From: Vulcanimicrobiota bacterium
GTDB taxonomy: Bacteria > Vulcanimicrobiota > Vulcanimicrobiia > Vulcanimicrobiales > Vulcanimicrobiaceae
Assembly (NCBI GenBank): GCA_963795855.1
Contig: CAWCIZ010000003.1
Span: forward strand, 928,001-992,000
Reading direction: 5' to 3'
Length of the DNA: 64,000 bases
In this document: positions 5,341 to 42,378 of the stretch, piece by piece
Numbering within the stretch: position 1 is the first letter of the stretch
Layout of the letters: the number at the start of each line of letters is the position of its first letter
Program-made: the position numbers and the translations under genes
The notes under the pieces: model-generated
What the model was told of the DNA's origin: nothing
Databases searched by the model: none
The model's input: only the letters and a program-made list of their open reading frames with translations

Positions 5341-5517
5341 CTAAGTAGCCGTTGCGGTCGGGCTTGGGCTCGGGCTGGGACTTCTACTCGGTGTAGCCGT
5401 TGGGACGGGAGCCATTGGGCCCGCCGGAATGCCGCCGTTCGTGTTGCAGGCCGAAACAGCGGCCAGCACGCAAGTCGCGATCAGCGCGCAGAACAACGCC
5501 TTCAGTATTCTCGCCAT
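5341..5517 (-). CDS. Small 58-aa lipoprotein, absent from the ORF track
   Basis: Hand translation MARILKALFCALIATCVLAAVSACNTNGGIPAGPMAPVPTATPSRSPSPSPSPTATAT*; lipobox VSA-C; Pro/Ser/Thr tail; fills an otherwise empty gap. Confidence 0.7.
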   Translation of the reverse strand: MARILKALFCALIATCVLAAVSACNTNGGIPAGPMAPVPTATPSRSPSPSPSPTATAT

Positions 5518-5581
5518 GGCTCAGGTGGGCTATTTGTGGTCCATGAGGGCTTTTCCCGCCGCTGTTGAACATGTCGCGCCA

Positions 5582-7103
5582 ATGCGAGCACGAGCGCAAA
5601 ACGCGGCCTCCGTCGACAGCGCACGCGAACTGTTTCAGGCCGCCGAGTTTACTTCCGCCGCGGCGACACTTCGCGCGCTTCTCGAGCAAAGGCCGGACGC
5701 CGTCGATGCGGCTCTACTCCTGGCACGGATTGAGATGCGCCTCGGCGAGCCGGCGGACGCGCTTGCAACGCTGACTCGATTCGGACGATTTGCGCGTAAA
5801 AGCGCGAAACCGGAACTGACGATGCTCAAAGCGGTGGCGTTCGCGCGTTCGGGCGACGCTGCTTCCGCGCGAACGCATTTTCGTAGCGCGCAAGCGCTCA
5901 TTGGGCCGGACGATGCATCCTACCCGGAACTGATCTATCAAATCGCCGCTAACGAATGGATGGAACGCCGCCTCGATAAAGCCGAAAAGTTGCTCGAGCG
6001 TATGCCGGAGGTACGGACTAGCGAGATCGATTTGCACGCGCGAATTTTGCACGGGGCGATAGCCTCGGCGAGCGAAAATCTTGCCGCGCAGGGCGCCATT
6101 CTGCTCGATGCTATACGGTGCACCGACGCCGCGGGCGCGGACGTTTATCTCTACGGCATGCTCGTGACGCAGATTGCGTCGCTTGCACTCGAGTCTGCCC
6201 AGCACCGCGCTGCGGGACGCCGCAATCGAACGCGTGGAAACGGTAAGGTGGACAACGGATATTGCGGATCTTCACTTTCACGCTGCTCGCGCGATAGCGT
6301 GGCGACACGCTTTGGACGGCGATGAATTCAGCGCTTTTCGCCGCTTGAAAGAAGCGCTCAACGCAGCGAATTCGGACGCGTGGCGCGTCGCCGCGCTGAC
6401 GGATCGCGCCTACCTTGCCGCGGTGCTCGGCGAGCGGCGCTGGGCCGCGCAAGAGTTGCGCGACGCGCACGACCTTGCCTCGAAGATCGACTGGGCAAGC
6501 GTCGCAGGCGAGGAGAAACTCGCTCTCCCCGTGCTCGCGGAGCTTTTCGCAGGCCGCGACCCTTCAGTCGCCATCGCCTACGTGACGACGTTCAAGAAGC
6601 TCGATAGGAATTTTCCGCGTATTCTTTCGTCTCGGCGCGATCGGCGGGTCGACGCGCTCGAAGCGTTTTCGCTCGGGCGCGTGCAACTGGCGCTCGGCGA
6701 ACGCCGCGAAGCGCGGCGGCTGCTCGAAAACGCGTGGTCGATTTACGATACGCTCGGGATGCAGTGGCGCGCGGGCCGTGCGGCGCTTTCGCTCCTAGAG
6801 ATCGACGCAAAGGGCCCTTGGCGCCAGCGGGCGGATCGGGCGCTCGAGCACTATCCGCGCAGTTGGCTCGTCCGTAAGGGGGTGACGCCGGGGGCTGTCG
6901 TCGCTGCCGCGCACCACGCTCCGCAACTGACGCCCGCGCAAAGGACTGTTTTGGACTTGCTTCTGGAGGGCCGCGGCACCGACGAAATATCGCGAACGCT
7001 GGGACGCAGCGCGTTTACGGTTCGCAACCACATCAAGGCGATTTTCAAGGCGTACGGCGTCACGTCCCGAGCGGCACTCATCGTTAGAGCTACAAGAGGC
7101 TAG
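5582..7103 (+). CDS. TPR-repeat protein with C-terminal LuxR-type HTH, regulator A (apparent frameshift near 6194; start uncertain)
   Basis: Helical TPR-like N-terminus; C-terminal LTPAQRTVLDLLLEGRGTDEISRTLGRSAFTVRNHIKAIFKAYGV. Confidence 0.8.
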
Positions 7104-7110
7104 GCAAACT

Positions 7111-7545
7111 ATGGTACGCCGCTCCTTCGCCGCCTCTTTTGCCGCAGTCGCGCTTCTCTTTACACTACTCGCAGCATGCGCCGGCCCCGCCTCCATTCCG
7201 GTGGAGAGTGCAGCCGACACGGCGGTGATCCAAGAGTCCGCCAACACTTGTGCGACGACGTACACGGTTCACCGCGATGGTACCGCTCAGCGCACGGTGC
7301 AAACGTGCGGTTCCGGCACGCTGAACGAAACGCTGCCGCCTAGCGTGACGTCGAAGCTTTTCTCCGATCTGCAATCCGCGCAGCCGCTCGGAGCGCTGCC
7401 GCGAGCTCTCACCGTCGACACTGACCTCATCATCGCGTGGAATGCACAGCAGACGCCCAATATCGAAGGCGCCGGCACCAACGTTATCGAGCAATCGCTG
7501 CTGGGTGACGTCAAGACGATCGAGCAAACCTTTCCAGCTCAATAG
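7111..7545 (+). CDS. Hypothetical lipoprotein
   Basis: Lipobox LLAA-C; starts 7 bp after regulator A. Confidence 0.7.
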   Translation: MVRRSFAASFAAVALLFTLLAACAGPASIPVESAADTAVIQESANTCATTYTVHRDGTAQRTVQTCGSGTLNETLPPSVTSKLFSDLQSAQPLGALPRALTVDTDLIIAWNAQQTPNIEGAGTNVIEQSLLGDVKTIEQTFPAQ

Positions 7546-7658
7546 AGACGTCGTCGTCACGGCGGGAGCGCACGCTTGGCCATGCACCAAAGCGCCGATC
7601 CCGCATTACCTCGGCGCGCGTAAAGCTTTGAGCAGAAGTATGAACGTATCGCGCAGAC

Positions 7659-9390
7659 ATGCCGAGATTTGTTCTCGGTATGACTTCCCTTGGTACGGTT
7701 TTACGATTCGCCGCAGTTGCGGCACTTTCAGCGACCTTCGCCGCATGCGGAGGCGGGCAATCCCCACTCGACATCACCCCTGCTACGACGACAACCGGTT
7801 TCTCTACCGCGAGAACCGCGCAAACGACGACTGCTGCGGCCGCGCCGGCTCTGACGCTGTCCGGCAACGTCATCAGCGCGGATATCTACAAAATCGCCGT
7901 CAAGACGACGCATCCGAGCTGCGGCACGATGTACGTCTACTACAACAGGAAGACGACGAAATTCTATCCGTACATCGGCTATCCGATCAAAGCCGGTATG
8001 CCGATTCAAGCTTCGGGTGCGGGCGCGTGCACGAACCGCGGTTCGCTAAACGCAAACGCAGTGACGTACACGGGCGCGGCGACGCCGCCGGCTTCGGCTA
8101 CGCCAGCGCCGAGCGTGTCACCGCCTCCCGTACCGGGAGCCTTGACGCCGCCCGGCACGACGGCATTCATGCCGAGCAGCTGGGGCGAGATCAGCGCGTT
8201 CCAAGTCTTCGACGAGACTTCGAACGGTTTCATCACGCAGACCGCAGACTTCGAATGACGGATGGCGCTACACCGCCGTGTGGGGTTCGCGGTGGAACAT
8301 CGGCACCGCGTGGAACAAAAGTAATCCGTCGCTCGAGAGCGGCTACTACAATGCGCTCGAAACCGATCCGAGTTACACCGGATGGGGTGCGATCGGCCAT
8401 AATCTTGCTTGGTGGAATGCGAATCATCCCGACTGGGTGTTATACGCGTGCACGTCCGCCGGAACGCCAAGCGCGAATCCGGCGTACGTACCGGGACTGA
8501 ACACGAACATTCCGCTCGACATTCACAATCCGGCCGTCGTCCAATATCAAGTTCGCGCCATGGCGAACTATGCGCACGCGATGGGCTATCGCGCGCTCGC
8601 GATCGACGAGGCGACCTTTTGGCAAGCCGATGCCGGCGCCGGCTCCGGTTCGTATGGCTGCGGGATTCGCCAAAACGGAGCGTGGGTGCAGCGGTACACG
8701 GGCGTAAACGATCCGAACTGGGCCGCCGACGTCGTGCAATGGACGAAAATCGCGCATAGTCTGCTTACGACGGATCCGGCGCTTGCGAGGTATCATCTCA
8801 AGCTGATCGTGAACCATCCCGCAAGCGGATTGTCGGCGAACGAAACGGCGCTGTTGTCGAACGTCGATGCCGATCTGGACGAAACGGGCTATAGCGATTA
8901 CGGCCGCTACCAGACCACGACCGCCAATACGTTCGTCATGCGTACGAATTGGGCGCAGTATGCGCAGCAACACGGCACGGCAATTTTGATGAACGCAAAC
9001 TGGGGCCGCGTTGCCGTCACCGCGCCGCGCTTCGACTATTCGATCGCGACGTACTTGATGGGCAATCTGCAAGCGGAGTCGATCTTCGTCTCGCCTTCGG
9101 CGGGATACGGCTTGGAGCAGTGGCATTCGGAGTATCAGACTGCGATCGGAGCGCCATGCGGAACCTATTACGGCGGCGCTTCGTACGACGCGGCAAATCC
9201 GAGCGTCTACTACCGCCGCTTCGGCAATGCGGTGGTGGTCGTCAACGCAGGCTCGGGAACGTCGAGCGAGGTGGCACATCTGCCCGCCGGACACACATAT
9301 ACCGACCTCGCCGGCCGTCCCGTTTCAAACCCCTTGACGCTCGCTTCGAATGACGGATACGTACTGCTCACGGCCAACGGCTGTCGCTAG
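7659..9390 (+). CDS. Lipoprotein, putative glycoside hydrolase (apparent frameshift near 8248)
   Basis: Lipobox FAA-C, Thr/Pro linker, Trp/Tyr-rich catalytic-like domain, C-terminal VYYRRFGNAVVVVN beta domain. Confidence 0.65.
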
Positions 9391-9457
9391 ACGGGTGTTG
9401 AAGGCGGCCCTCGCGGGAATCGCGGGGTCGCTCGGCCTCGCGCCTCGCCAAAAGGGG

Positions 9458-9486
9458 TAGTCACGGGCTTGCCGAGCCTGTATACT
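9458..9486 (+). promoter_or_regulatory. Putative sigma70 promoter of the rpsR-rplI-lonC-dnaB operon
   Basis: TAGTCA-N17-TATACT. Confidence 0.55.
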
Positions 9487-9627
9487 CGAACCTGTTTTCC
9501 AAACGGAAATCCCCGCCCGCGGGGTAGTGGCGCGCGTCAGGCGCGTCACTTCGCTAGGGTCGCTATTCCTCGTCCCGAGATAGGGCAGGCTAGCGGCCGT
9601 CAACCACCTAGTGAAAGGACAAGAGCA

Positions 9628-9876
9628 ATGGCTAGCACCAAGGCCAAACGGGCCGTTAAAGAGCGTCGCCCTAAGCGTAAAGCGTGCAATTTTTGCGCCG
9701 AGAAAGCGCTCGATATCAACTACAAGGACGTCGCCCGTCTCAAGAAGTTCGTTTCGGAACGCGGCAAAATTCTACCGCGCCGCATCTCCGGCAACTGCGC
9801 CCGCCACCAGCGCCTGCTCACCGTCGCAGTAAAGCGCGCTCGCGTCATCGCATTTTTACCGTTCGTCACCGAATAG
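9628..9876 (+). CDS. rpsR: 30S ribosomal protein S18 (Zn-binding form)
   Basis: CNFC...[42 protein letters not shown]. Confidence 0.97.
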
Positions 9877-9879
9877 GCC

Positions 9880-10326
9880 ATGAAGCTCATTTTGCTCAAC
9901 GACGTAAAAGCGCTCGGAAAGAAGGGCGCCTTGGTCGACGTAGCGGAGGGGTACGCGCGAAATTTTTTGCTGCCCCGCAAGCTGGCGGTCGAAGCGAACA
10001 AGGGCGCACTCACGATGCTTTCCGAGCAGCAAAAGGCCAAGGCAAAGCGCGAAGCGCAGATGCTGGCGGAAACCCATGAGATGGCCAAGCTGTTGGAGAG
10101 TAAGCCGGTAGCCGTACGTGCGAAGGCCGGCGGCAACGGCAAACTGTTCGGCACGGTGACGAACGCGGATATCGCGGACGCGATCACGCAGACGTTCTCT
10201 CTGTCGGTGGACAAGCACAAGATCGAAGTGAAAAATTCCATCAAAGCGCTGGGAGTCTACCCCGTAGAAATCCGGTTAGGGAAAAACGTCGTCGCGAAGA
10301 CGACCGTCAGCGTCGTCGCAGCGTAG
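9880..10326 (+). CDS. rplI: 50S ribosomal protein L9
   Basis: MKLILLNDVKALGKKG..VAEGYARNFLLP; GKLFGTVT. Confidence 0.97.
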   Translation: MKLILLNDVKALGKKGALVDVAEGYARNFLLPRKLAVEANKGALTMLSEQQKAKAKREAQMLAETHEMAKLLESKPVAVRAKAGGNGKLFGTVTNADIADAITQTFSLSVDKHKIEVKNSIKALGVYPVEIRLGKNVVAKTTVSVVAA

Positions 10327-10333
10327 CCTCGTC

Positions 10334-12313
10334 ATGGCCGGAGCGGGCGAAAATCCGTATCTCGCGCGTTTTCGCCGCAAGTTCGGCAGCGAAGACGAGA
10401 CGAGCCGTTATGTCTCGGCGCTGTATGACGTTCTAGCGAACACCATCGGCTCGGACAAGCTGGTGCTGCGCGCCGGGAAGATGAACGCGCTCAAACTGAT
10501 GCGTTCGACCGCGCTGCCGGACCGCATCTGCGCGCTCGCGCGTTTGGTCTTCGAGGATCCGACGCTCGAACGCGTTACGGGGCGAGCGAATTCGCGACGC
10601 GTCATTTCCGAGATCGAAGAACATCTGGCGGATCTCATCGCGCAGAAAAACGTCGAAGATTCGATCGAGCGCCGCATCAACACGAAAATGATCGAGCGCC
10701 ATCAAGAATACTTGAAGGACCTCAAACTCGAAGCATTGCGCGAGGACACCGGTCCCGAAACGCCCGCGACGCAGAAGAAGCTGGAGGAACTGCAGCAACT
10801 CGATGCTCGCGGTCTGGCGGCGTCGGCGCTGCAGCTGCTGCGCCCGCAATCGCTCAAGGAAGTGGTCGGACAAGAGTCCGCCATTCGCTCGCTGCTGGCA
10901 AAAATTTCGTCGCCGTATCCGCAGCACGTGATCCTCTACGGGCCGCCCGGTGTCGGCAAAACGACCGTCGCCCGTTTGGCGCTCGAAGTGGCGAAGAACC
11001 GCGCCTACACGCCTTTCAAAAAGGAAGCGCCGTTCGTCGAGGCAAGCGGAACGACGCTGCGCTGGGATCCGCGCGAGACGACGAATCCGCTGCTCGGCAG
11101 CGTGCACGACCCGATCTACCAGGGCAGCCGGCGCGAATTCGCCGAGGGCGGCATTCCCGAGCCGAAACTCGGCTTAGTGACGCGCGCCCACGGCGGCGTG
11201 CTCTTCATCGACGAGATCGGCGAGATGGACCCGCTGCTGCAAACGAAGATCCTCAAAGTTCTCGAAGACAAGAAGGTCACGTTCGAATCGTCGTATTATG
11301 ACGAATCCGCGTCGAACGTTCCCGAATACATCAAACGATTGTTTCGCGCCGGCGCGCCGGCCGATTTCATTCTCATCGGCGCCACGACGCGAGAACCGGA
11401 AGATATCGACGCCGCCATCCGCTCGCGCTGCGCGGCCGTGTACTTCGAACCGCTGACCCAGCATCAAATCGTGAGCATCGTCAACGGCGCAATCAAACGT
11501 CTGCGCGCGAAAGCCGCCCGAGGCGTCGCACCATTGATCGCCTCGTACACGATCGAAGGGCGTAAGGCCGTGCAGGTCGTTGCGGACGCCTACGGGCACG
11601 CGCTGTACCGAATTGCCGGCAGCCGCGCGAAGGTAGACGACGCGAAGCACGTCACTATCACCGAAGACGACGTGCGCGACGTCGTTCAGGCGAGTCGTCT
11701 CGTACAGCATACGACGGTAAAGGCGCGCTCGACGCGCGAAATCGGCAAAACCTTCGGCCTAGGCGTATTGCACTATTTGGGCAGCATCATCGAAATCGAA
11801 GCGGTCGCCTTCGGCTCCGGCGCGAGCGGCAAAGGCACCGTGCGTTTCAACGACGCAGCCGGAGCAATGGCGAAAGACAGCGTGTTCAACGCGGCTGCGG
11901 TGCTGCGCGCGGTAACCGGCTTGGACACGGCGAATCACGATTTGCACATCAACGTGATCGGCGGCGGAAACATCGATGGACCCTCTGCGGGCCTGGCGAT
12001 TTTCCTCGCTCTGTATTCTGCGCTCACGAAGACGCCGCTGCCGCAGGACGTTGCGATCACCGGCGAGCTGTCGATTCAAGGCAAGGTTCGTCCGGTCGGC
12101 GGTATCGTCGAGAAGTTGTATGCCGCAAGACAGGCGGGCATGCGCGCGATACTCGTGCCCAAGGAAAATCTTCGAGAAATTGACCGTACGCTCGCAGGAA
12201 TCGACGTCATTCCTATTACGTCGGTGGAGCAGGCGTTCCGCGCGCTTTCTCTCCACAAGAAATCCACAAGGCGAGTGACGCGCGGGCGGCGCAGTACTTC
12301 CGCCCGCTCATGA
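10334..12313 (+). CDS. lonC: Lon-family ATP-dependent protease (LonC-like)
   Basis: Walker A GPPGVGKT, Walker B LFIDE, Lon protease DGPSAG; lies between rplI and dnaB. Confidence 0.85.
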   Translation: MAGAGENPYLARFRRKFGSEDETSRYVSALYDVLANTIGSDKLVLRAGKMNALKLMRSTALPDRICALARLVFEDPTLERVTGRANSRRVISEIEEHLADLIAQKNVEDSIERRINTKMIERHQEYLKDLKLEALREDTGPETPATQKKLEELQQLDARGLAASALQLLRPQSLKEVVGQESAIRSLLAKISSPYPQHVILYGPPGVGKTTVARLALEVAKNRAYTPFKKEAPFVEASGTTLRWDPRETTNPLLGSVHDPIYQGSRREFAEGGIPEPKLGLVTRAHGGVLFIDEIGEMDPLLQTKILKVLEDKKVTFESSYYDESASNVPEYIKRLFRAGAPADFILIGATTREPEDIDAAIRSRCAAVYFEPLTQHQIVSIVNGAIKRLRAKAARGVAPLIASYTIEGRKAVQVVADAYGHALYRIAGSRAKVDDAKHVTITEDDVRDVVQASRLVQHTTVKARSTREIGKTFGLGVLHYLGSIIEIEAVAFGSGASGKGTVRFNDAAGAMAKDSVFNAAAVLRAVTGLDTANHDLHINVIGGGNIDGPSAGLAIFLALYSALTKTPLPQDVAITGELSIQGKVRPVGGIVEKLYAARQAGMRAILVPKENLREIDRTLAGIDVIPITSVEQAFRALSLHKKSTRRVTRGRRSTSARS

Positions 12314-13675
12314 GCATAACGAATCTCCCGCTGGTCGACCGAATTCCGCCGCAAAACTTAGAGGCGGAGATGGCGTTGCTCGGCTCGATTCTCGTCGATC
12401 GCGAGATCATGGGCATCGTGAACGAGATCGTGCGCCCGGACGATCTGTACGCACACGTGCACGAGTCGATCTACGCGGTGCTTCAGCATCTGTACGACCG
12501 CGGCGAACCGCTCGACAAAATTACCGTTGCGGAAGAACTCAAACGCCGGAGCGAACTCGAGAAAGTCGGGGGACTCTCGTACCTCAGTTCGCTGATGGAT
12601 ACGGTGCAGACCGCAGCATCCGCGGCGTACTACGCGAAGATCGTGCGCGAAAAAGCAGTTCTGCGCGGTCTGATTCACGCCGGAACGCGCATCACTCAAC
12701 TCGGCTTCGAAAACGAAGAAGACGTCGACGGCGCGCTCGACCAAAGCGAGCAAATGGTTTACGACATCGGGCGCCGGCAAATGCAGGGCGAGTTTACGCC
12801 CGTGAGCCGCTTGCTCAAACCGGCGTTCGAACACATCGACAAGTTGTTCCACAACCGCGGGGGCCGCACCGGTTTGACGTCGGGCTTCGCCGACATCGAC
12901 GAAATGACGACCGGTTTTCAGCCCGGCAACTTCATCATTCTGGCCGCGCGACCCGGTATGGGCAAGACCTCGTTCGCGCTGAACATGGCGGTCGCAGCAT
13001 CGCGGGAAGAGACCGCGCCCGTCGCGTTCTTTTCGCTGGAGATGTCGAACGACGAGCTGGTCCAGCGTCTGATCTGCGCGGAAGCGGAGATCAGCATGCA
13101 CGACATGCGGCGCGGCAACATCAAGCCGCACCATTGGGAGAAGATCTCCGACGCGATGGGCGTGCTCAACGAGATGCCGATCTACCTCGACGATTCCGGC
13201 GGGCTTTCGGTGTCCGAGATTCGCAGCCGCTGCCGCAGGCTCAAGTCCGGACAGGGACTCTCCGCAGTGTTCATCGACTATCTGCAGTCTGGTGCACCCG
13301 AGCGTGCTGAGCCGAGGCGCGAATCGCAACGAAGAGCTTTCCGATATCTGCCGCACGCTCAAGATGACGGCGAAAGATTTGGGCGTGCCGATCGTTGGGC
13401 TGGCACAGTTGAACCGCGGCGTCGAAGCGCGCACCGATAAGCGGCCGCTTCTGAGCGATCTGCGCGACTCGGGCTCGCTCGAGCAGGAAGCCGACATGGT
13501 CGCGTTCCTTTTCCGCGAAGGATATTACCACAACGAAGCCGCGGAGCCCGACTTGACCGAATTCATCATCGCGAAACATCGAAACGGGCCGACGGGAACC
13601 GTGAAATTGCGCTTTCAGCGCGAGTTCACGTTGTTCCGGCCGTACGGCGACGCGACGCACTACCCGACGCCGTGA
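12310..13675 (+). CDS. dnaB: Replicative DNA helicase (apparent frameshift near 13288)
   Basis: PPQNLEAE, AARPGMGKT, DYLQ, QLNR, DLRDSGSLEQEAD, IAKHRNGPTG. Confidence 0.95.
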
Positions 13676-14016
13676 ACGGCCTGAAGCTCTCGCACCTCAG
13701 TTTGGGCGTCAGCGATCTCGCCGCGTCCGAAACGTTCTACCGCGACGTTTTGACGCTGCCCGCCGAGCGCGTCGGCGACGACGTTCGCGTGCAATGGCCG
13801 GATTTTTTGCTCGTCATCACGGAGAAGCCGCCGGCCGATCGCAGCAAGTTCCATTTCGGCTTCCGCGTCGGCAGTGAAGCGGAAGTGGACGCGTGGGCCG
13901 AGCGCCTGCGCGCGCACGGCGTGCAAATCATTTCGGGACCGGCGAGCGGCGACGGTTTGCGTCAACTCTTCTTCCTGGATCCCGACCAGTACGTCGTCGA
14001 AATTTACGCCAAATAG
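13672..14016 (+). CDS. VOC/glyoxalase family protein
   Basis: HLSLGVSDL..FY, HFGFRV, FFLDPD..VEI. Confidence 0.85.
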   Translation: MNGLKLSHLSLGVSDLAASETFYRDVLTLPAERVGDDVRVQWPDFLLVITEKPPADRSKFHFGFRVGSEAEVDAWAERLRAHGVQIISGPASGDGLRQLFFLDPDQYVVEIYAK

Positions 14017-14210
14017 CTTCGCGCGGCAAGCGCGCGCAGATCGTCGAACGCGTAGACGACGTCATCGAACACACCGGAGTCTACGTTGATCCCCTGCGGC
14101 ACAAGACCGCGATATGATGCTTCCCAGGCGGCGACGTGCACCGCGGCGAGGGCTTCGGAGTCGCTCGCGACGCCCGCGCGTATGGTAAACTGCACGGACG
14201 CCTTTTTCAT
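14004..14210 (-). pseudogene. Truncated GNAT acetyltransferase N-terminus
   Basis: IRAGVASDSEALAAVHVAAWEASYRGLVP resembles GNAT N-termini; only 68 aa. Confidence 0.45.
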
Positions 14211-14222
14211 TGAAGGACGGTA

Positions 14223-14253
14223 TTGACCCTCACGTAAGGTCATACTCTATCGT
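14223..14253 (+). promoter_or_regulatory. MerR-type promoter with 19-bp spacer and operator
   Basis: TTGACC-N19-TATCGT with an imperfect TGACC..GGTCA dyad, directly upstream of a MerR gene. Confidence 0.75.
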
Positions 14254-14271
14254 CCTTGGTGAGGAATCCCG

Positions 14272-15051
14272 ATGCAAGCACCGCCGACAAACCTTCGACG
14301 AGCCAAGCAGTTCGCCCAAGAAGCCGGAGTAACGGTAAGGACGCTGCACGTCTACGACCGTCTCGGACTGCTGCGGCCCGCCGCGCGCTCCGCTTCCGGT
14401 TATCGCCTGTACGGCGAGGCCGAACTCGAACGTCTCGAACAGATTTTGGCGCTGCGCTTCGTCGGGTTTCGACTCGAACACATCAAGGAGCTTCTGCAAG
14501 GTCCGAAGTGGCCACTCGTCGCCGCTCTACGAATGCAGCGCGAGATCATCGCACAGCAACAGCGCAAACTCGACGCCGCGGCGCAGGCTATCGAACGTGC
14601 GGAATCGGCGCTCGACGGCGCCGAATCGGCAGACCGGTGGCAGATCCTCCTGAACATCATCGAGGCGTTCAAAATGGAAAACGAATGGAGCTGGACGGAA
14701 AACTATTACAACGAGGAGGCGCGCGAAAAACTCGCGCAGTACCGGAACGACACGCCGAAGGAAGTCGTGGAGGAAGGGGAGCGTGATTGGGCCGCGCTCA
14801 TCGCCGAAGTCGAAGAGGCCGCCTCGCGCGACGAGGACCCTGCGACCGAAGCTGCGGGACAACTAGCGAACCGCTGGTGCGCCCTGGTGCGCCGGTTCAC
14901 GCGCGGCGATGCCGACGTGCAGCAAGGCTTGAATCGGTTGTGGTCCGATCCGACGCATTGGCCGAAGAATTTCAAGAAGCCCTGGAGCGACGCGGCGGAC
15001 GCGTGGATCAAACGCGCTATGACATCAGCGCGGCCCAGTCCTGACGGCTGA
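14272..15051 (+). CDS. MerR family regulator with TipAS domain (TipA/Mta-like)
   Basis: GVTVRTLHVYDRLGLLRP..SGYRLY; C-terminal TipAS-like DPATEAAGQLANRW. Confidence 0.9.
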   Translation: MQAPPTNLRRAKQFAQEAGVTVRTLHVYDRLGLLRPAARSASGYRLYGEAELERLEQILALRFVGFRLEHIKELLQGPKWPLVAALRMQREIIAQQQRKLDAAAQAIERAESALDGAESADRWQILLNIIEAFKMENEWSWTENYYNEEAREKLAQYRNDTPKEVVEEGERDWAALIAEVEEAASRDEDPATEAAGQLANRWCALVRRFTRGDADVQQGLNRLWSDPTHWPKNFKKPWSDAADAWIKRAMTSARPSPDG

Positions 15052-16030
15052 TCCGCAAGTCATCTTCGTTCATCTGCGCGAGCGGTTTTTGCGGAAGCCG
15101 CTCGCGCTCGCACAGGTCGCGCGCAGAGGTTTCCACGTACAGCAATCCCGTCGCCAGCTCTCCGCGGTTGCGGGCCTCGTTCATGACGCGCAGTGCTTCC
15201 ATGCGATCCGACGCGTCGTAGTCGCGCTCGAGCTTGCGCAGCAGCACCCGGTTTCCGTTGTCGAAGGTTATTTCCTGAACCGTTCCGGGTTCATAGTCTA
15301 CCGTGATTTCCGTACTGCCGGCGATGAAGTCCGCGGTGTGCAGTACCGCGTGATGTTCCTTGATGTAGTTGTAACTCTTCGTCGATCCTTCGTGATCGTT
15401 GAAGGTCACGCACGGGCTGATGACGTCGAGCACCGCGATGCCGCGGTGCGAGAATGCCGCCTGAAGCAGCGGGATCAGCTGTTTTCCGTCGCCCGAAAAC
15501 GATCGCGCAACGAACGTTGCGCCCAGTTCGACCGCGAGACCGCAGACGTCGATCGTCTCGAATTCGTTGACTTGCCCTTTCTTGAGCACCGAACCGCGAT
15601 CCGCGGTGGCGGAGAACTGCCCTTTAGTCAACCCATAGCAGCCGTTGTCCTCGATGATGTACGTCGCGTCGACGTTGCGGCGGATCATGTGGCAATACTG
15701 TCCCAGGCCGATGCTCGCAGTATCACCGTCGCCGCTGATCCCCAGCACCATAAGCTCCCGGTTCGCGACCTTCGCGCCGGTCGCCAGCGACGGCATCCGT
15801 CCGTGGACGCCGTTGAAGCCGTGCGCGCGCTCGACGAAATAGGCAGGCGTCTTCGAAGAGCAGCCGATGCCGCTCATCTTCGCAAGCTTGTACGGATCCA
15901 CGCCGTATTCGTAGAGCGCCTTGATGAGATGGTTGGTTATCGAATTATGCCCGCAGCCGGCGCACAGCGTGCTCGCCGCGCCTTTATAGACGTCGCGGGG
16001 TAATCCGAGGACGTTCACGTTCGAATTCAT
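15017..16030 (-). CDS. 2-oxoacid:ferredoxin oxidoreductase beta subunit
   Basis: LCAGCGH, SGIGCSS, SGDGD TPP-binding motif, SPCVTFN. Confidence 0.92.
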   Translation of the reverse strand: MNSNVNVLGLPRDVYKGAASTLCAGCGHNSITNHLIKALYEYGVDPYKLAKMSGIGCSSKTPAYFVERAHGFNGVHGRMPSLATGAKVANRELMVLGISGDGDTASIGLGQYCHMIRRNVDATYIIEDNGCYGLTKGQFSATADRGSVLKKGQVNEFETIDVCGLAVELGATFVARSFSGDGKQLIPLLQAAFSHRGIAVLDVISPCVTFNDHEGSTKSYNYIKEHHAVLHTADFIAGSTEITVDYEPGTVQEITFDNGNRVLLRKLERDYDASDRMEALRVMNEARNRGELATGLLYVETSARDLCERERLPQKPLAQMNEDDLRISRQDWAALMS

Positions 16031-17832
16031 TACGCGGGCACCATTTTCTCGGCTGAAAGGATTGGTTCGGTAACGGCGCGAGCGTCGATAGGCACGCCGT
16101 TGTAGTGGCGTACCGACTGCAGGCGTTCGAGAAGATGCGCGGGCAGTTCGGTGCGAAGCAGCGCGTGCAATTGCCCGTCGCGATTCTGCTCGACGACGTA
16201 TACGCGATCGTGGCGTTCGATGAACGCGGCCACGTCTTGCGAAAACGGCAGCGCGCGTACGCGAAGGTAATCCATTTCCAGGCCTTCCTCGCGCAAACGA
16301 TCGCGCGCCTCGATCACCGCATGGTGCGTCGTGCCGTACGCCAGAATGGCGACGGGACGGCCGGCTTCGTCCGAAAGAGGCTGCGGAACGAACGTTCGCG
16401 CCGTTTCGTGCTTGCGCGAAAGCCGGTCGAGATTGCCGCGGTACACGTCGGGATTCTCGGAGTAGTTCGCCTGTTCGTCGTGACCGGATCCGCGCGTGAA
16501 ATAGCCGGCGAGCGGATGCGCCGTACCCGGAAGCGTGCGGTAGGGTATGCCGTCGCCTTCGACGTCGCGATAGCGGCCCCACGTCTTCACTTCGTCCAGT
16601 TTGGCGGCGTCCAGAATTTTACCGCGATCGAACGGCTTTTCCGGATACGCAAGCGGCGCCGTCATCCACAGGTTCATGCCCAGGTCCAAGTCGCTAAGCA
16701 CGAACACGGGCGTTTGAAAGCGGTCGGCCAAGTCGAACGCTTGCATCGAAAACTCATACGCTTCCTCGACGGTGCCCGGCAGCAGAACGATATGCTTCGT
16801 ATCGCCGTGCGAGAGCGTGTAGGCGAATGCGACGTCGCCTTGCAGCGTGCGCGTCGGCAGACCCGTAGACGGCCCGGCGCGCTGCACGTCGAAGATCACG
16901 CCCGGCAATTCGGCGTAGTATCCCAGGCCCGCGAACTCCGCCATCAGCGAAAGCCCCGGACCGGAGGTCGAGGTCATCGCGCGCGCTCCGGCCCACGTTG
17001 CGCCGAACACCATACCGATCGCCGCGAGTTCGTCCTCGGCTTGCAAGATTGCGGCTTTGCGCGTGCCGCTCTCCTTGTCGACGCGGAAGCGGTCGCAGTA
17101 TTGAATGAAGGACTCGCAGAGCGACGACGATGGCGTGATGGGGTACCACGCCGCGACCGTGCATCCGCCCATGACGCAGCCCAGCGCGGCCGCGCTGTTG
17201 CCGTCCATCAGCAGCAAGTCTTCGGTCTTGCCGCTCATCGGCTGCAAGCGGTAGAGATCCGTCTTGGTCAGGTTCGCCGACGCGAACTCCGAACCCACAC
17301 GCACGGCGTCCATATTCGTCTGCACGGCCTTGGGTTTCGTTTTGAACTGACCGCGGAGCGCCGCCTCGATCGTGTCGACCCCAATGCCGAGCAGATGCGC
17401 GAGCACGCCGACGTAGATCATGTTCGTCAGGTATTTGCGCAAGCCGCCGTCGCTCACGTGCTCCTTCGCGAGTTTCGCGAACGGCACGGGGTAATACGTG
17501 ACGTCCTCGCGCGCCGCATCGCCCGTTACCGCGTATGCCGCTTCGTGAACCACTACGCCGCCCGAGCGCACGTCACGCACGTCGGCGTGCCAGGTCGTCG
17601 GATTGAGCGCGACCAGTATGTCGACGTCTCTGCTGCGGCACCGATATCCTTGCGGCGAGACGCGCACGTCGAACCACGTGGGCAGCCCCTCGATGTTGGA
17701 CGGGAAGACGTTTTTCGGGGCAACCGGGATCCCCATGCGGAAGATCGCGTTGGTCAAAACGAGATTGGCCGACTGACTTCCGGAGCCGTTCACCGTCGCA
17801 GCGCGGATGGTGAGATCGTTGGCGGTGTTCAC
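16030..17832 (-). CDS. 2-oxoacid:acceptor oxidoreductase alpha subunit
   Basis: YPITPSS, QAEDELAA, TSGPGLSLM, QRAGPSTGLPT. Confidence 0.92.
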   Translation of the reverse strand: MNTANDLTIRAATVNGSGSQSANLVLTNAIFRMGIPVAPKNVFPSNIEGLPTWFDVRVSPQGYRCRSRDVDILVALNPTTWHADVRDVRSGGVVVHEAAYAVTGDAAREDVTYYPVPFAKLAKEHVSDGGLRKYLTNMIYVGVLAHLLGIGVDTIEAALRGQFKTKPKAVQTNMDAVRVGSEFASANLTKTDLYRLQPMSGKTEDLLLMDGNSAAALGCVMGGCTVAAWYPITPSSSLCESFIQYCDRFRVDKESGTRKAAILQAEDELAAIGMVFGATWAGARAMTSTSGPGLSLMAEFAGLGYYAELPGVIFDVQRAGPSTGLPTRTLQGDVAFAYTLSHGDTKHIVLLPGTVEEAYEFSMQAFDLADRFQTPVFVLSDLDLGMNLWMTAPLAYPEKPFDRGKILDAAKLDEVKTWGRYRDVEGDGIPYRTLPGTAHPLAGYFTRGSGHDEQANYSENPDVYRGNLDRLSRKHETARTFVPQPLSDEAGRPVAILAYGTTHHAVIEARDRLREEGLEMDYLRVRALPFSQDVAAFIERHDRVYVVEQNRDGQLHALLRTELPAHLLERLQSVRHYNGVPIDARAVTEPILSAEKMVPA

Positions 17833-17833
17833 G

Positions 17834-18361
17834 CTAATCTATTCGGGAAACCACGCCTTCTTTCATGTACGAGCGCGAAAGCGCGACGTACTCGGCGGCG
17901 CTGCCGTCAATCCAGCGGGCTGCCTCACCCTCGATGGACTTTTTCACTTTTGCAGGCGATCCGGCAGCCAGCACCCCCTCCGGAATCTGCGCTCGCTCGC
18001 CGACGACGCTGCCGGCGGCAATCAGCGAGCGCGATCCGACGACCGCGCCTCCCAAAATGACGGCGTTGCTGCCGACTAAGGCAAACGGCTCGATGCGGCA
18101 ATCTTCCATCACGGCGCAGTGCCCGACGGTAACGTCGTCTCCGACGATCGTTTCGCCGTGCTCGCTCACGTGCAGGACGCAGTTGTCCTGAATCGACGTG
18201 CGAGCCCCGATGCGGATCGGTCCGTTGTCGCCCCGAAGCACGGCCCCGAACCAGATGCTCGACTCCTCCCCGACTTCCACATCGCCGATCAGCACGGCCG
18301 TCGGTGCCACGAACGCCGACGAATGCATGCGGGGGCGTTTCCCCCGGTATTCAATGATCAT
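17834..18361 (-). CDS. Gamma carbonic anhydrase family protein
   Basis: IWFGAVLRGD, IQDNCVLH, hexapeptide repeats. Confidence 0.9.
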   Translation of the reverse strand: MIIEYRGKRPRMHSSAFVAPTAVLIGDVEVGEESSIWFGAVLRGDNGPIRIGARTSIQDNCVLHVSEHGETIVGDDVTVGHCAVMEDCRIEPFALVGSNAVILGGAVVGSRSLIAAGSVVGERAQIPEGVLAAGSPAKVKKSIEGEAARWIDGSAAEYVALSRSYMKEGVVSRID

Positions 18362-18391
18362 TTGGCCCTCCGAAGGAAACCCCACATTCGT

Positions 18392-18646
18392 ATGCACCGC
18401 CACAACACCCCGCTGCGAGGCGTGAAGGCGACCCCGCGGCCCAAAACCGGCGATCCGAACTACACGGCCGTGAATTATGCGTATGCCGGCAAGACGGGTC
18501 ACATTCACGAGGTGGTTACCGTCGGCGGGCGAGAGCTGGCCAAGGTCGGCTTCGACGACAGAAAGATCGTCTATTACTATCTCGACGATCTCGACCTGGA
18601 CCGCTCGGCCAAGCGCGGAACGTTCCATGACACCGATCGAGGGTAG
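18392..18646 (+). CDS. Small hypothetical protein (possible SH3/KOW-like fold)
   Basis: 84 aa; YAGKTGHIHEVVTVGGRELAKVGFDD beta-rich segment. Confidence 0.55.
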   Translation: MHRHNTPLRGVKATPRPKTGDPNYTAVNYAYAGKTGHIHEVVTVGGRELAKVGFDDRKIVYYYLDDLDLDRSAKRGTFHDTDRG

Positions 18647-18721
18647 GCTACCGTACGTCGTAAGGGACACTTTACATATACTTAACACATGCAGCCTTGA
18701 AGTTGGTCCCTAAGGCCTAAA

Positions 18722-18757
18722 CTTAGCGCTCGCTTAAACGCCGCTAAGCGGTATAAT
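18722..18757 (+). promoter_or_regulatory. Promoter with consensus -10 and an inverted repeat around the -35 region
   Basis: CTTAGCG(18722)-N13-CGCTAAG(18742); TATAAT at 18752; AT-rich gap. Confidence 0.55.
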
Positions 18758-18820
18758 AACTCAGGGTAAACATCCACACCAAGCAAGCGCGTCATGGATG
18801 GCGCTGGGGGAGAAATCGCG

Positions 18821-19814
18821 GTGCAAAATCGTCTTATGCGAGGCGCTCTTTTCTTTTTGGGCTTAGCCCTCGCAGGCTGTTCTACGCAAGGATCGCAGAA
18901 CGTTCCGCAGGGCGGGGTCACTCGCCCACCGAGCGGTCCGGCGCTGCAAGCGCCCGCCCTTCGGCGGCCTATGGACGTTTGGGGCGGTCCATCCGGACTG
19001 TTCCGCATGTTGAATTCGCTTTTAGGAGACTCCGCGCCGACGATCGGGGGGAGGACGCTCGCGCACTTCTACGTCGGCGTGCGTGAGATCGACGCTATTC
19101 AAAACGGACAGAGCGTCGTGCTCGGTTCGTCGTCGACGCCGTATCAGATCGACTTGCTCCAGTATCAAAACGGCAGCGGCGATTGGATGACGCAGACGAG
19201 CGTTCCGGCGCAGACGTACACGCAACTGCGCTACGTTTTCGACGTCGGCAGCACGCAGGCGGTTTTCGCGGACGGCAGCACGATGCCGGTCCGATTCAAC
19301 GCCGGACCTTCGCGCAGTTCCTCGGGTGAAGGCGCGTCCACGTCGACATCGGCCGACTCGACCTATGCGAACGCGGTAGACGTCGTCGTGAACACGCAGC
19401 TAACCGTGCAGTCCGATTCGGATACCGTGGCGGCGGACTTCAACCTCGCCGAATCGTTGGGTCAAGCGCCGGGCGCGCTGGTCGTTCGTCCGGTGGTCTC
19501 AGCCGCAGCCGATCCGGGTCAAATCAACGGAACGGTGCAGAACGCTAACGGCAACGGCGTGCAAGGCGCCACCGTGGTCGCGTACGGTTCCAACGGCGCC
19601 GCGGTAAATTCCACGGCGACGGATGCGAGCGGCGCGTTCAATCTCCATGCGCTGCCGGCCGATACATATCAGACTCGTGATCTATAACAATTACACGAAC
19701 GCGGCCGGCTACCGGACGAACGCGTCCGGCCAGACGTCGAACGGTTCGGTCAGCGGACCGTCGGTTTCCGTTACTTCGGGAAGCACTGTTTCTGCCGGAA
19801 CCATCGGCGACTAA
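18821..19814 (+). CDS. DUF4382-like lipoprotein with carboxypeptidase-regulatory-like domain, copy 1 (apparent frameshift near 19673)
   Basis: Lipobox LAG-C; LLGDSAP, IDLLQYQ, ADFNLAESL, GQINGTVQNANG. Confidence 0.75.
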
Positions 19815-19835
19815 TCGGGACGGAGAGACACAAAC

Positions 19836-20823
19836 ATGAAGCGTACAGCTTTACACCTGTGTGCTCTAGCGACGGCGTGCACCCTAGCCGCGTGCGGATC
19901 CGGTTCGAATCCGAATCCGCCGGCGCAAGTGCCGCAGTCGGGCCCAGGTTTGATACGGCCGATGGACGTCTGGGGCGGACCTAGCGGTTCGCGACTGAAC
20001 GTTCTGCTCGGCGACGCCGCGCCGGATTTGGGCGGCAACAAACTCCAGCATCTCGATCTCGGCATAAAAGAGATCGATGCAATCGACAACAGCGGACAAA
20101 CCACGGTACTGGCTTCGTTCGAAACGCCGCGCGTCGTCGACGTGCTTGCGCACCAACGCGACGACGGCGAATCCGTGGCCGACGCGAACGTCAGCCGCAC
20201 CAGTTATCAAGAGTTACGGCTGGTGGTGGACCTCAGCTACAGACTTCGCCAAGTTCAGCGGTGCGCCGCGAGTGCCGGTCAACTTCCTGGTCAACGTGGC
20301 CAGTGCCAGCAGCGTCAACGCCGGCGTGACGACGCTCACGACGAGCGACGGACCGGGAGCGGTAGACGTGCTGGTGAAGCAGGCGTTTTCCATCGCGGAC
20401 GGTGGCCACCAATCGGTTCGCATGGACTTCAATGCGTTCGAATCGCTGACGCTCGACCAGTCGGGAACGCTCCTCGCGCGACCGACGATGTTCGTAGCGC
20501 CCGTCGACGAGATGGGCAGCGTGAGCGGCCGCGTGCTGGACTCCAGCGGGAATCCGGTCCAGAACGCAACGGTCGCGGCGATCGCGCCGGACGGTTCGGT
20601 CGGCAATACGGACTGGACCGGGCCGCGAGGACACTTCAGCATCGGCACGCTGCGTGCCGGAACGTATCAGCTCGTCGTCTACAACGCGTACACGACGGCT
20701 GCCGGACGCGCAGTCACCGCATCGGGGGTTAGCAGCGCCAACGCCTCAATGCAATCCATCTCCGGGCCGAACGTTACGGTAACGGGCGGCAAAAACACTG
20801 CTGCAGGCATCATCAAGGACTGA
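19836..20823 (+). CDS. DUF4382-like lipoprotein with carboxypeptidase-regulatory-like domain, copy 2 (apparent frameshift near 20243)
   Basis: Lipobox LAA-C; LLGDAAP, MDFNAFESL, GSVSGRVLDSSG; paralog of copy 1. Confidence 0.75.
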
Positions 20824-20829
20824 TCGACG

Positions 20830-22389
20830 ATGCAAAGCATAATTGCGGTAACGGGTACGCAGGCTGCAGAACTGCTGGAAGGCGCACTGGAGGCGGATCG
20901 CCGGGCAAGGCGTGACGATGCTCTGGAGCTGCTGGCAGGCTGCGCGGAGTGGCCCGCACCATACAACGAGCAAGGACTGGTACTACGCGCCGACGTGCTG
21001 ACCGCGCGCGACGCCATCACCGGCCTTCAAGAACTAGCCGCACACGCGGATGCGTTCACCTCGCCGGACGGGCGGGTGGCATACCTGATTGCGTCGGCAC
21101 GCGCCTACATGAAAGCGCGCAACTTCGATGCCGCGGAAGCGATGCTGGATAGCGCGCAGGGCGGACTCGAAGCCGCAAAGGGCGAGCGCCGTCACGAACT
21201 CGCATACGCTCGTGCGCGTCTGCAGTGGAATCGCCGCGAATACGATCCGCAAAGCGAGCACCTCGCATTAGCGCTGCGCTCGGCGGACCCCGCGATTCGC
21301 ATGAATTCCCTGAACCTGCGCGGTTGGATGCATGCAGGTCTGGAAGACTATCGTTCGCAGTTGCGCGATCTGCTCGGCTGCCTCGAAATCTTCAAGGAAC
21401 ACGGTCATCTTTGCGGTCTGGCCAGCGTCGCGACGTCGCTGCAGACGGCATCGGTAGCCGGTTGGGAACTGCACGACCCGGATGCAATGCGTCAAGCCGA
21501 AGCGGCGTTCGACGCGATTGCGTGGACGCCGGACATCCAAGTCCACCGGTTCCTGTGTCTGCGCTCGCTGGCGTGGCACGCGTTCCTAGCGGGCGACTCG
21601 GCTCGCGCGCAGTGGCTCTTCAAAGACTCCAAGGACGACGCGCCGACGCCGGCGTGGAAGGTCATGGCGCACGTCGATCGGGCTTATGTTGCGCGCATCA
21701 ACCGCAACGAAGCGTGGGCGGCGGAAGAGCTGCACGAGGCGCACGGCCTGGCGCGCAAAGTCGAGTGGCATGCGACTCGCGACGAAGAACGCATGGCGCT
21801 CATAACCCTGGCGGTGCTCTTCGCACCGATCGACCTGGGACACGCCCAGCGCTACGTTTCGACCTACATCGAATTGGGCGCCGGCAACCTGAACTCCAGC
21901 GTCGAAGCCTCGCACGAACCACGCCGGAACACCGCGCATCAGAAGTATGCTGCGGGCCGCGTTCAGGCGATGCTCGGCAACAAAGCCCTCGCGATTCGGG
22001 CACTCGAGGAAGCGTACGAGATCTTCACCCAGATCGACCACGACTTCCGCGCGGCGGTCGTCTCGCAAGCGCTTAGCGAACTCACCGGTGATGCCAGATG
22101 GCTGGACAACGCTCGCGTCCACGCGGCGAAGTTCCCGAAGAGCGCGCTGGCTCAACGGTTGAATCAGCACGACGAGCGCAAGGAAGGACCGGAACTCCAA
22201 GGCTTGACGCCGACGCAGCGACAGATTGCGATCGCGCACTGCCAAGGCTTGGATAACGCGGAACTTTCGCGGCGCTTCAGCCGGAGCACGTTCACCATCG
22301 AAAAACAACTCGAAGAGATCTATGCCGCCTTCGGCGTGCGATCGCGCGCCACGCTGCGCGACGAATTGCATCGCCGGGGCATCCTGTGA
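20830..22389 (+). CDS. TPR-repeat protein with C-terminal LuxR-type HTH, regulator B
   Basis: LTPTQRQIAIAHCQGLDNAELSRRFSRSTFTIEKQLEEIYAAFGV; aligns with regulator A. Confidence 0.8.
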   Translation: MQSIIAVTGTQAAELLEGALEADRRARRDDALELLAGCAEWPAPYNEQGLVLRADVLTARDAITGLQELAAHADAFTSPDGRVAYLIASARAYMKARNFDAAEAMLDSAQGGLEAAKGERRHELAYARARLQWNRREYDPQSEHLALALRSADPAIRMNSLNLRGWMHAGLEDYRSQLRDLLGCLEIFKEHGHLCGLASVATSLQTASVAGWELHDPDAMRQAEAAFDAIAWTPDIQVHRFLCLRSLAWHAFLAGDSARAQWLFKDSKDDAPTPAWKVMAHVDRAYVARINRNEAWAAEELHEAHGLARKVEWHATRDEERMALITLAVLFAPIDLGHAQRYVSTYIELGAGNLNSSVEASHEPRRNTAHQKYAAGRVQAMLGNKALAIRALEEAYEIFTQIDHDFRAAVVSQALSELTGDARWLDNARVHAAKFPKSALAQRLNQHDERKEGPELQGLTPTQRQIAIAHCQGLDNAELSRRFSRSTFTIEKQLEEIYAAFGVRSRATLRDELHRRGIL

Positions 22390-24513
22390 CGCCGCTGCTT
22401 GCAGCACTCGCCGGAGCGGTACTAGCACTCCTCGTGGCGGGCGCCGTCGCGGTCTTTGACCGCCGGCGCTCGCTGCGGGCGCTCGTCGAAAAGCGCTACA
22501 GCGTTCTCGAAAGCATTCCGGACGCTTTTCTCATCGTCGATCGCGAGTTTCGATTCACGCACGCAAACGAGCGCGCTGAAGATCTCTTCGGCCGCAGCGC
22601 GGGCGAACTGGTTGGGTATCGCGTCGAAGACATTCTCGACCCGCTCGCATCGGAGCTGCTGCCCGAGATGCGCCGCGCCGCCGAAGCGGGACGCCCGATC
22701 GAGCGACTACAGTATTTTCCGGCGACGAGCCGCTGGATCGAGATCTGCATGCAGCCGGCGCGCGACGAAGTGCTCGTGTATCTGCGCGACATTTCGGAGC
22801 GTAAGAAAGCCGAACTCAGCGCGCTGGACAAAGAACGGCGTCTGCGTTTGCTGCTCTCGCAAATTCCGGCGGTGCTCTTCACCGTCGATCTCGACATGAA
22901 CATCACGTCGGTCGCGGGCGCCGCGCTTAGTCAACAAGATCTTTCGGAAGATAAACTGGTCGGCGCACCGTTCGACGCGCTGCTCGCCGGCCACGAACAA
23001 CGCCTCGCATCGGTGTCGGCGGTGCGACGCGTACTGGCGGGGGAGGCCGTTTCCTACGAAACGCAACTGCGCGATCGCTGGCTGCAGAACGACGTCGAAC
23101 CGCTTCGCGACGCACAGGGGAGCGTCGTGGGCGCCATCGGCGTTATGCTGGACGTCACGGAAGTCCGCTCGAGTGCGGAGCGCTTCGCGCAGCTCGCCCG
23201 TCAAGATGTGATGACGGGGCTGCCCAATCGGCTCGCGCTGGAAGAGCGTCTGCCGGAGCAGGCTCGACCACGCGCTGCAAAATCACGAGTCGGTCGCGGT
23301 GCTCTTCGTCGACCTCGACCGCTTCAAGACGATCAACGACACGCTCGGGCATCGCGTCGGCGACGATCTGCTGCGCGCCGTTTCAAGCCGCATGCAGACG
23401 CGCATCGACAATCGCGCGACGATTTACCGGCCTGGCGGCGACGAGTTCGTCATCGTCATCGACGGAATCAAACACAAACGCACGGTCGCGGCCATTTCGA
23501 TGGAAGTGCTGCAGGCGTTCGCCGAACCGTTCGACGTCGAAGGCCGCGAGCTGTTCGTCACCGCGAGCCTTGGAGCGAGCATCTTTCCGCAAAATGCGCA
23601 GACCGCGGACGAACTCATCGCATACGCCGACTCGGCGATGTATCGCGCCAAAGAGTCCGGGCGGAACAACGCGAAATTTTACGATGGAACCATGCACGCG
23701 CACGTGCTCGAACGCATGGGCTTGGAGCAGGATCTGCGGCAGGCGCATTTGCGCGGCGAGCTGCGGCTGCTGTATCAGCCGATCGTCGACATGGCTTCGC
23801 GGCGCATCGTCGGCGCGGAAGCGCTGCTGCGCTGGCAGCATCCGCTGCTCGGCGAACTCTCGCCGCAGACATTCGTGCCGATCGCCGAAGAAACGGGCGT
23901 CATCGTCGAGATCAGCCGCTGGGTGCTGCGCGAAGCTTGCGCGAACGCGGCGCGGATGCGGCGCGAGGGAGCCTCGGATTTCCGAATCAGCGTGAACCTT
24001 TCGCCACGCGATTTCTACGAACAGGATCTCGCCGCCACGCTCGCCGCCGTGCTTGCGGAAACCGGTTTGCCGGCGGACGCGCTGGATTTGGAAGTCACCG
24101 AGAACGTGGTGCTCAACGACATGGCGCTCGAGACGCTGCAGCGGATCGCGAACATGCACGTCAACGTCGTCGTCGACGACTTCGGCACCGGCTACAGCTC
24201 GCTGCACTACATCAAGCGTTTGCCGGTCAAGGCGATCAAAATCGATAAGAGCTTCATCGACGACGTCGCGATGGATCCGTACGATCAAGGCATCGTCAAA
24301 GCCATTACGACGCTGGGCAATACGCTCAACCTGCGCATCATCGCCGAAGGCATCGAGTCGGAATCGCAGTACGAGTTCTTACGCTCGCTCAAATGCGAGC
24401 ACGCGCAGGGCTATTTCTTCTATCGCCCGCAGACGTGGAGCGCGCTCGTCACGATTTTGCAGCGTAGCGGTGAGGTGAGTACCGGCGCGCGCGTGATTCC
24501 GCTGTACGGCTAG
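22386..24513 (+). CDS. Membrane-anchored PAS-PAS-GGDEF-EAL protein (apparent frameshift near 23262)
   Basis: N-terminal TM helix, two PAS domains, TGLPNR, GGDEF, AEAL, DDFGTGYSSL. Confidence 0.9.
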
Positions 24514-42344: not shown

Positions 42345-42378
42345 AAGGAAAGAGGGCGGCGCTTTCGCACCGCCCTCC
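42345..42378 (-). terminator. Intrinsic terminator after TonB-dependent receptor 2
   Basis: GAGGGCGGTGC-GAAA-GCGCCGCCCTC followed by TTTCCTT. Confidence 0.8.

Follow-up and report, generated by a model that had tools for sequence, protein, structure and literature searches.

Two transcriptional regulators encoded in a 64,000-nucleotide stretch of a Vulcanimicrobiota bacterium genome (contig CAWCIZ010000003.1, positions 928,001 to 992,000; this whole stretch is called the window here) lie beside lipoprotein genes that carry a short peptide core built on Gly-Gly, and the question this locus raises is whether the regulators read that core as a signal. An earlier note on this DNA proposed that they do. 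Regulator A (5582..7103, forward strand) and regulator B (20830..22389, forward strand; intact, 519 aa) both have, as that note held, a tetratricopeptide repeat (TPR)-like core and a C-terminal LuxR-type helix-turn-helix (HTH), seen in Pfam as TPR matches and a GerE/LuxR HTH. The note recognized no receiver, ATPase or acyl-homoserine lactone (AHL)-binding domain, and Pfam likewise returns no receiver, ATPase or autoinducer-binding family for the window regulators at E<=0.1; nor do such families occur among the 25 commonest of the 30 Pfam families matched in 96 relatives. NCBIfam has no name for any part of the cassette, and its MalT model gives a weak match confined to the HTH. We find that the predicted system is real and family-wide, and that comparative genomics strongly backs the pairing of the regulators with peptide-bearing exported proteins.

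This pairing was scored under fixed rules, whereby an open reading frame (ORF) with a hydrophobic N-terminus had to lie within 600 bp of the regulator and carry the motif within 70 residues after that N-terminus; the strict motif was [DN]xxGG(x)P, and a looser one was scored alongside. The 164 regulators with both flanks reduce to 129 at 95% identity, and 39/129 of these adjoin a strict-motif ORF and 86/129 a loose-motif one, versus 2/934 and 153/934 for unrelated 400-650-aa ORFs of this genome under the same rules, so the enrichment near regulator homologs that the earlier note expected is indeed there. At 50% identity the counts are 14/37 (strict) and 21/37 (loose). Reading the loci individually covered 139 distinct regulators, three of them not scorable; 115/136 have their own precursor (29/39 at 50% identity), two share one precursor in a tandem array, and 19 have none adjacent. 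The window's own genome encodes a third, frameshifted paralog at C2:518608-520138, which a genome search found with a 58-aa motif-bearing lipoprotein directly upstream, and a solenoid profile search of this genome found no fourth. All three regulators (3/3) thus adjoin a lipoprotein with a [DN]xxGG(x)P core, and the strict motif occurs in 4/5 lipobox ORFs near them versus 1/257 elsewhere. Of 24 metagenome loci fetched after the rules were fixed, 14 had an upstream flank (two pairs being near-identical), and these gave 3/14 strict, 9/14 loose (one via a different gene) and 12/14 by reading. Some loci are arranged differently: at L053 (G011:C1:1629000-1640000) three tandem regulators, which appear shorter (463-484 aa), stand behind one precursor with seven to eight repeats, and at L107, L116, L134 and L091/L102 whole lipoprotein-regulator cassettes are duplicated in tandem, with cores identical or diverged.

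The precursors themselves take four forms. In the A clade they are small lipoproteins encoded divergently from the regulator, and the core stands at the cysteine; other small lipoproteins are co-oriented with the regulator and have between one and about a dozen core copies; one clade has Sec-only peptides without a lipobox; and in the B clade the precursor is a DUF4382 lipoprotein of 290-350 aa whose linker ends in a single core. Most carry a lipobox, export signals having been called by a simple script (hydrophobic N-terminus, lipobox). The 58-aa precursor divergent from regulator A (5341..5517, reverse strand) is arranged as the earlier note described, with a signal peptide, a lipobox, the core right behind the cysteine (5425-5445) and a Pro/Ser/Thr tail, and orthologs with the same core occur at loci L033-L036 and L203-L205. 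Ahead of regulator B, lipoprotein 1 (18794..19814, forward strand) has a core-bearing linker (18974-18991), DUF4382 and a CarboxypepD_reg-like domain, and lipoprotein 2 (19836..20823, forward strand) repeats this architecture with an identical core (19965-19982); Pfam finds DUF4382 and CarboxypepD_reg in both. The motif claimed for these two proteins is present in each, but its supposed place near the lipobox is not borne out, as it lies about 24-37 residues past the cysteine, just before DUF4382. Regulator A (near 6183-6193, relative to an intact ortholog), lipoprotein 1 (near 19653-19672) and lipoprotein 2 (near 20234-20260) each contain a single frameshift, and these are probably assembly errors, because many window genes are split and the orthologs are intact.

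Repetition and position set the core apart. Among small precursors, 19/44 have at least two copies and 14/44 end no more than 12 residues past the last one. In 54 large precursors (a set from which nine mis-registered rows were dropped, others being unscored) the first core residue is Asp in 63%, Glu in 13%, Asn in 9% and Gly in 9%; in 93% a Gly-Gly pair comes two residues after it, and in 63% a Pro precedes it by two places. Nine DUF4382 lipoproteins whose loci contain no regulator have short Gly/Ser/Thr linkers and score 0/9 strict and 1/9 loose. Because these unlinked proteins lack the strict core, the comparison indicates that the core is neither a general linker nor part of the DUF4382 domain; together with precursors that have no domain at all, this speaks against the motif being a buried structural element, a possibility the earlier note had raised against itself. 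An intact B-type lipoprotein folded from its single sequence gave an uninformative model (predicted local distance difference test, pLDDT, 36). In a neighboring family, L012, L015 and L017 have a different repeated core ending in Pro-Pro-Tyr and their own perfect palindrome about 100 bp upstream.

The regulator fold is predicted with confidence. The model of regulator B (pLDDT 92.5) is an all-helical solenoid (residues 9-446), a linker and a LuxR/NarL-type HTH (455-519), and its best structural match among 48,161 chains is MalT domain III (1hz4; Z 22.6, root-mean-square deviation 5.8, 349 aligned residues, 12% identity), followed by eukaryotic TPR proteins (Z 20.5-19.0), RapI (18.8), Rap105 (18.3), AimR (18.1) and NprR (17.4); Foldseek returned generic TPR matches only. 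MalT ancestry is no more than a lead, since high Z values are common for repeat proteins. Across 139 rows, 88-96% retain the charged residues at positions 213, 245, 283, 284, 319, 320 and 366, and Glu213, Arg245, Asp283, Arg284, Glu319, Glu320 and Arg366 may line a putative pocket. Core type tracks regulator clade, which demonstrates shared descent and not co-evolution, as the core simply follows the tree. The three-row clade with the Pro-Pro-Tyr core has lost Asp283 and Arg284, in one event. Out of 53 invariant columns, Arg209 alone is replaced in each of the three lineages in which the acidic core residue has become Gly or Gln; the columns that differ number 1, 1 and 3 in these lineages. This comparison was post hoc, the column having been seen first, with three hand-picked sister sets and B's own subclade left out of the sister set, and we treat the Arg209-core pairing as a lead. 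A complex prediction for regulator B (1-448) with a 30-residue core-bearing segment scored 0.02, 0.37 and 0.19 and is evidence neither way.

Upstream DNA adds a second layer of clade-specific conservation. A 16-bp palindrome, TA[GC]-N10-[GC]TA, precedes 28/44 small precursors (shuffled mean 6.0), 116/4544 background regions (2.6%) and 3/58 large precursors. The pattern was picked by eye, with three spurious picks dropped, and other spacers of 6-14 give counts of 3-18, those at 7 and 13 being inflated by one clade. An unsupervised fit on 36 thinned regions recovers the same palindrome (log-likelihood 125 versus 22-26 shuffled), and a matrix from 19 sites of other clades places 11/15 held-out regions above the 95th background percentile and 9/15 above the 99th. 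Trained on other clades, the matrix ranks the third paralog's box first of 3.06 million genome positions, so that this cassette (L026, G000:C2:518608-520405) combines a regulator, a 58-aa precursor and the genome's best-scoring palindromic box; a second box there overlaps the ribosome-binding site. In the later metagenome loci, 10/11 listed small lipoproteins exceed the 99th percentile, their clade having been in training. The 7-2-7 geometry fits NarL-type heads. In the window, two imperfect 16-bp boxes (5517-5532 and 5537-5552) occupy the 64-bp spacer between regulator A and its divergent precursor, a spacer conserved in 5/5 aligned orthologs, and are likely, if putative, regulator A operators. 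Boxes scoring above 9 also precede 10/19 precursor-less regulators, in a window wider than that of the background. One conserved precursor-less clade (L029, L031, L032, L037), divergent from an Ala/Lys-rich gene that resembles a histone-like protein by eye, has a strong box upstream of the regulator itself; these are possibly orphans that listen to other cassettes.

The B clade has a TTTAC-N6-TTTAC-type direct repeat with an 11-bp period in place of the palindrome, fitted in about three quarters of 42 regions. The window copy (18671..18686, forward strand) has the top score genome-wide and was itself in the training set. It lies about 65 bp ahead of a TATAAT (18752-18757) that is kept in 7/7 orthologs and has no consensus -35, and this placement suggests an activator site of the B operon, one that regulator B itself would bind. 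A consensus scan found no sigma-70 promoter in the upstream region of A or B. Two other candidates were dropped, an inverted repeat at about 18720-18746 that is not conserved in orthologs and a TTGAAG at 18697, considered as a -35 box, that is 55 bp from the TATAAT.

Onto the gene pairing, the export signals, the conserved and repeated core, the upstream motifs and the domain content, all read from DNA, and the predicted fold of the regulator, we place a mechanism that we favor with moderate confidence: export, cutting, re-import, binding of the core by the regulator and self-activation of its own cassette. The Gly-Gly core would be cut out after export, perhaps just before the acidic residue, given the upstream Pro of the large precursors. 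The freed core would likely return through one of many family-5 ABC (ATP-binding cassette) systems, for which the 3.06-Mb genome has a large peptide-type uptake capacity (26 solute-binding protein matches, some of them fragments of one gene), and would then sit in the solenoid cavity. The peptide-bound regulator would use the conserved upstream boxes to turn on the cassette it belongs to, more plausibly by activation than by repression. The B output is likely a lifestyle switch made up of the two surface lipoproteins and the product of a PAS-GGDEF-EAL cyclic di-GMP (c-di-GMP) enzyme gene (22386..24513, forward strand, in two frames), which overlaps the regulator B stop; a PAS homolog lies 3' of the regulator in 57/69 B-clade loci versus 0/67 others. 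The A output is probably neighboring lipoproteins, with a likely co-transcribed target in a 144-aa lipoprotein gene of unknown family 7 bp 3' of regulator A (7111..7545, forward strand); at L033-L036 the regulator is followed by other lipoproteins. The peptide might reach other cells or act as a private export-import timer, and the multi-copy precursors favor an amplified, shared signal.

Several observations weigh against this cycle. The A-clade core starts at or beside the lipidated cysteine, which means that only a cut next to the anchor could free it. No dedicated protease or transporter was recognized by eye among the 22 most recurrent neighbor clusters. The closest fold, MalT domain III, binds a sugar and not a peptide. 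At position 209, regulator B and the seven relatives nearest to it carry Val, Gly or Met and still have the Asp core, as does a further clade with Gln209, so the Arg209 pairing is not general. The window A boxes are weak, at 8.4 and 9.4 bits (2.4 and 5.0 with their own clade left out), and where a box overlaps the ribosome-binding site, as at the third paralog, repression fits better than activation. Precursor-less regulators, 19/136, include a conserved four-member clade, and the loci are mutually related and skewed to the B clade (69/139 rows).

The anchored A-clade core and the neighbor clusters, with no linked protease or importer recognized, lend some weight to a different account, in which the regulator binds the core of unexported precursor in the cytoplasm and reports on Sec export or lipoprotein maturation, with no release or re-import. 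FlgM and ExsE follow comparable logic, and such a monitor would also suit a core found on several cargoes with no relation to one another. Against it, some precursors have as many as a dozen or so tandem copies, or C-terminal cores, and look built for cutting, and a general monitor has no need of clade-specific cores or of several cassettes per genome; we regard this account as unlikely. Somewhat more doubtful is that the core reports envelope damage, being freed from its tether only by periplasmic proteases under stress and imported by the same cell. The lipobox of most precursors, a diderm host with LspA and a B-clade core that lies within a folded surface lipoprotein's linker would all suit such a reporter, but the clade of Sec-only peptides and the multi-copy forms with no domain to protect would not. 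In both of these accounts, as in the export and re-import cycle, it is the regulator that reads the core.

Doubtful to a slightly greater degree is that the solenoid, like the MalT sensor (whose ligand is maltotriose, PMC4381067), responds to a small molecule and controls the adjacent exported gene, with the core serving a protease, sorting factor or surface partner. The top structural match points this way, and so do the 19 regulators without a precursor, ten of them with an upstream box; on this account it is harder to see why the core is absent from unlinked DUF4382 lipoproteins and from 256/257 other lipobox ORFs, or why it varies between regulator clades and alongside conserved receptor residues. 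Very improbable, finally, is that the small genes supply precursors for modified peptide natural products, with the regulator as pathway activator, since, although a leader with repeated cores resembles multi-core precursors, signal peptides and lipoboxes direct the products out of the cytoplasm, the neighbors, read by eye, showed no recognizable modifying enzyme that recurs and the core is also embedded in large lipoproteins.

How widely does the system occur? A 16-row regulator profile (threshold E 1e-15, up to five candidates scored per genome) matched 172/206 genomes of the window's own family, or 166/200 without six matched genomes flagged unpublished (G258, G260, G251, G286, G194, G227), on which nothing else stated here depends. 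Two neighboring families had matches in 1/3 and 4/22 genomes, three of those 4 near threshold, and the other 18 families searched had none. Clustered at 50%, the protein library contains 676 matches at E<=1e-30, not all necessarily members. Several cassettes can coexist within one genome. In an Atlas search Vulcanimicrobiota clusters came first, and then, as a lead only, similar TPR-LuxR proteins of Actinomycetota and Acidobacteriota (530-570 aa, feature score 0.95-0.96). The genome encodes Omp85, LpxC and LspA, from which we take the host to be a diderm, as the earlier note had supposed.

That note also suggested that an Opp-type transporter and M48 proteases in the window might serve import and processing. 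We found no support for them as dedicated partners, given the genome-wide abundance of family-5 matches; neither family was recognized by eye among the 22 most recurrent neighbor clusters. Other window genes are recorded here in passing: a Ser/Thr/Pro-rich exported protein in two frames (7659-9390), with no Pfam or NCBIfam match and a C-terminal part glycoside-hydrolase-like by eye only; an ORF (31846-32700) resembling a Dam-type DNA adenine methylase by eye, followed by a frameshifted ORF; two large tandem exported proteins resembling outer-membrane receptors by eye (39208-45442); and a BTAD-ATPase-TPR regulator of the STAND (signal transduction ATPases that have numerous domains) class in two frames (50127-52963), whose TPR part matches the family profile weakly (E 1e-5).

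Descriptions of one-component peptide signaling come from Bacillota and the mobile elements they carry (PMC10075063), and the main detector filters out this domain order. If our interpretation is right, a family-wide system in a diderm lineage would widen this picture, and it would offer a case of convergent evolution and many receptor-peptide-operator sets. No description of it showed in listings of literature on quorum sensing, LuxR proteins or peptides in Eremiobacterota/Vulcanimicrobiota and on peptide signaling by TPR-linked LuxR or MalT proteins, drawn from a library with a minority of the subscription papers, and the RRNPP_Detector tables could list such discarded clusters. It is tempting to go further and see here a second origin of intracellular peptide-pheromone signaling, evolved independently in a diderm phylum, with a MalT-like sensor that kept its LuxR head and lost its ATPase, diversification into hundreds of lineages of receptor whose peptide codes and operators are private, one clade that hides its signal in a surface lipoprotein linker and drives c-di-GMP signaling, and an A-clade ligand that may be a lipopeptide; we put this forward tentatively, as a picture that may well prove too ambitious. 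The predicted cores, boxes and pocket residues are testable in E. coli with synthetic peptides, and culture of the host is unneeded.

Among known systems, the AHL-binding LuxR proteins and NarL-type response regulators share only the HTH, as neither an autoinducer-binding nor a receiver domain was found here. In Enterococcus, sex pheromones such as cCF10, read by PrgX, come from the signal peptide of lipoproteins; the parallel drawn by the earlier note stands insofar as a lipoprotein would be the peptide's source, but it is loose, because here the core lies in the mature part. MalT and the other STAND activators of the LAL (large ATP-binding regulators of the LuxR family) type come closer, with a superhelical sensor followed by an HTH that in MalT is of LuxR type. 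The regulators here differ in having no nucleotide-binding oligomerization domain, for which the all-helical model leaves no room, and in being paired with peptide genes and not with a sugar regulon. As homology to the STAND sensors of this genome is weak (E about 1e-5), descent from a STAND is only a lead. Predicted activator sites in repeats are a further likeness to MalT (PMC4381067).

The RRNPP(A) systems of Bacillota (Rap-Phr, NprR-NprX, PlcR-PapR, Rgg-SHP, PrgX and AimR-AimP, as presented in PMC10075063, PMC9765709 and PMC11343458) are matched in having a cytoplasmic helical-repeat receptor with TPRs beside a precursor gene, the two genes adjoining (3/3 here, 115/136 relatives), and in the tandem core copies of precursors (PMC11343458). 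By hydrophobic N-terminus and lipobox, the precursors here are candidates for the Sec export of RRNPP(A) propeptides. Propeptide length agrees in part, the 58 aa of A and many relatives falling inside the 10-100 aa range and the ~330 aa of B and the long multi-copy forms outside. Differences are plain as well. The TPR region here occupies the N-terminal part, and a C-terminal HTH of LuxR/NarL type follows it; RRNPP_Detector discarded clusters with N-terminal TPRs (PMC10075063). Regulator B (519 aa) and most full-length relatives (500-540 aa) exceed the 250-500 aa receptor range; lipoprotein precursors dominate, whereas a minority of RRNPPA precursors, 211/2,734, are predicted Sec/SPII (PMC9765709); the core may sit in a 300-350-aa lipoprotein; and the host is taken to be a diderm. 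Of the earlier proposal of an RRNPP-like system with inverted architecture, the reversed domain order holds and the mode of working is probable, but membership falls away. With a fold closest to the MalT sensor and the domain order reversed, the system probably works like RRNPP without being a member.

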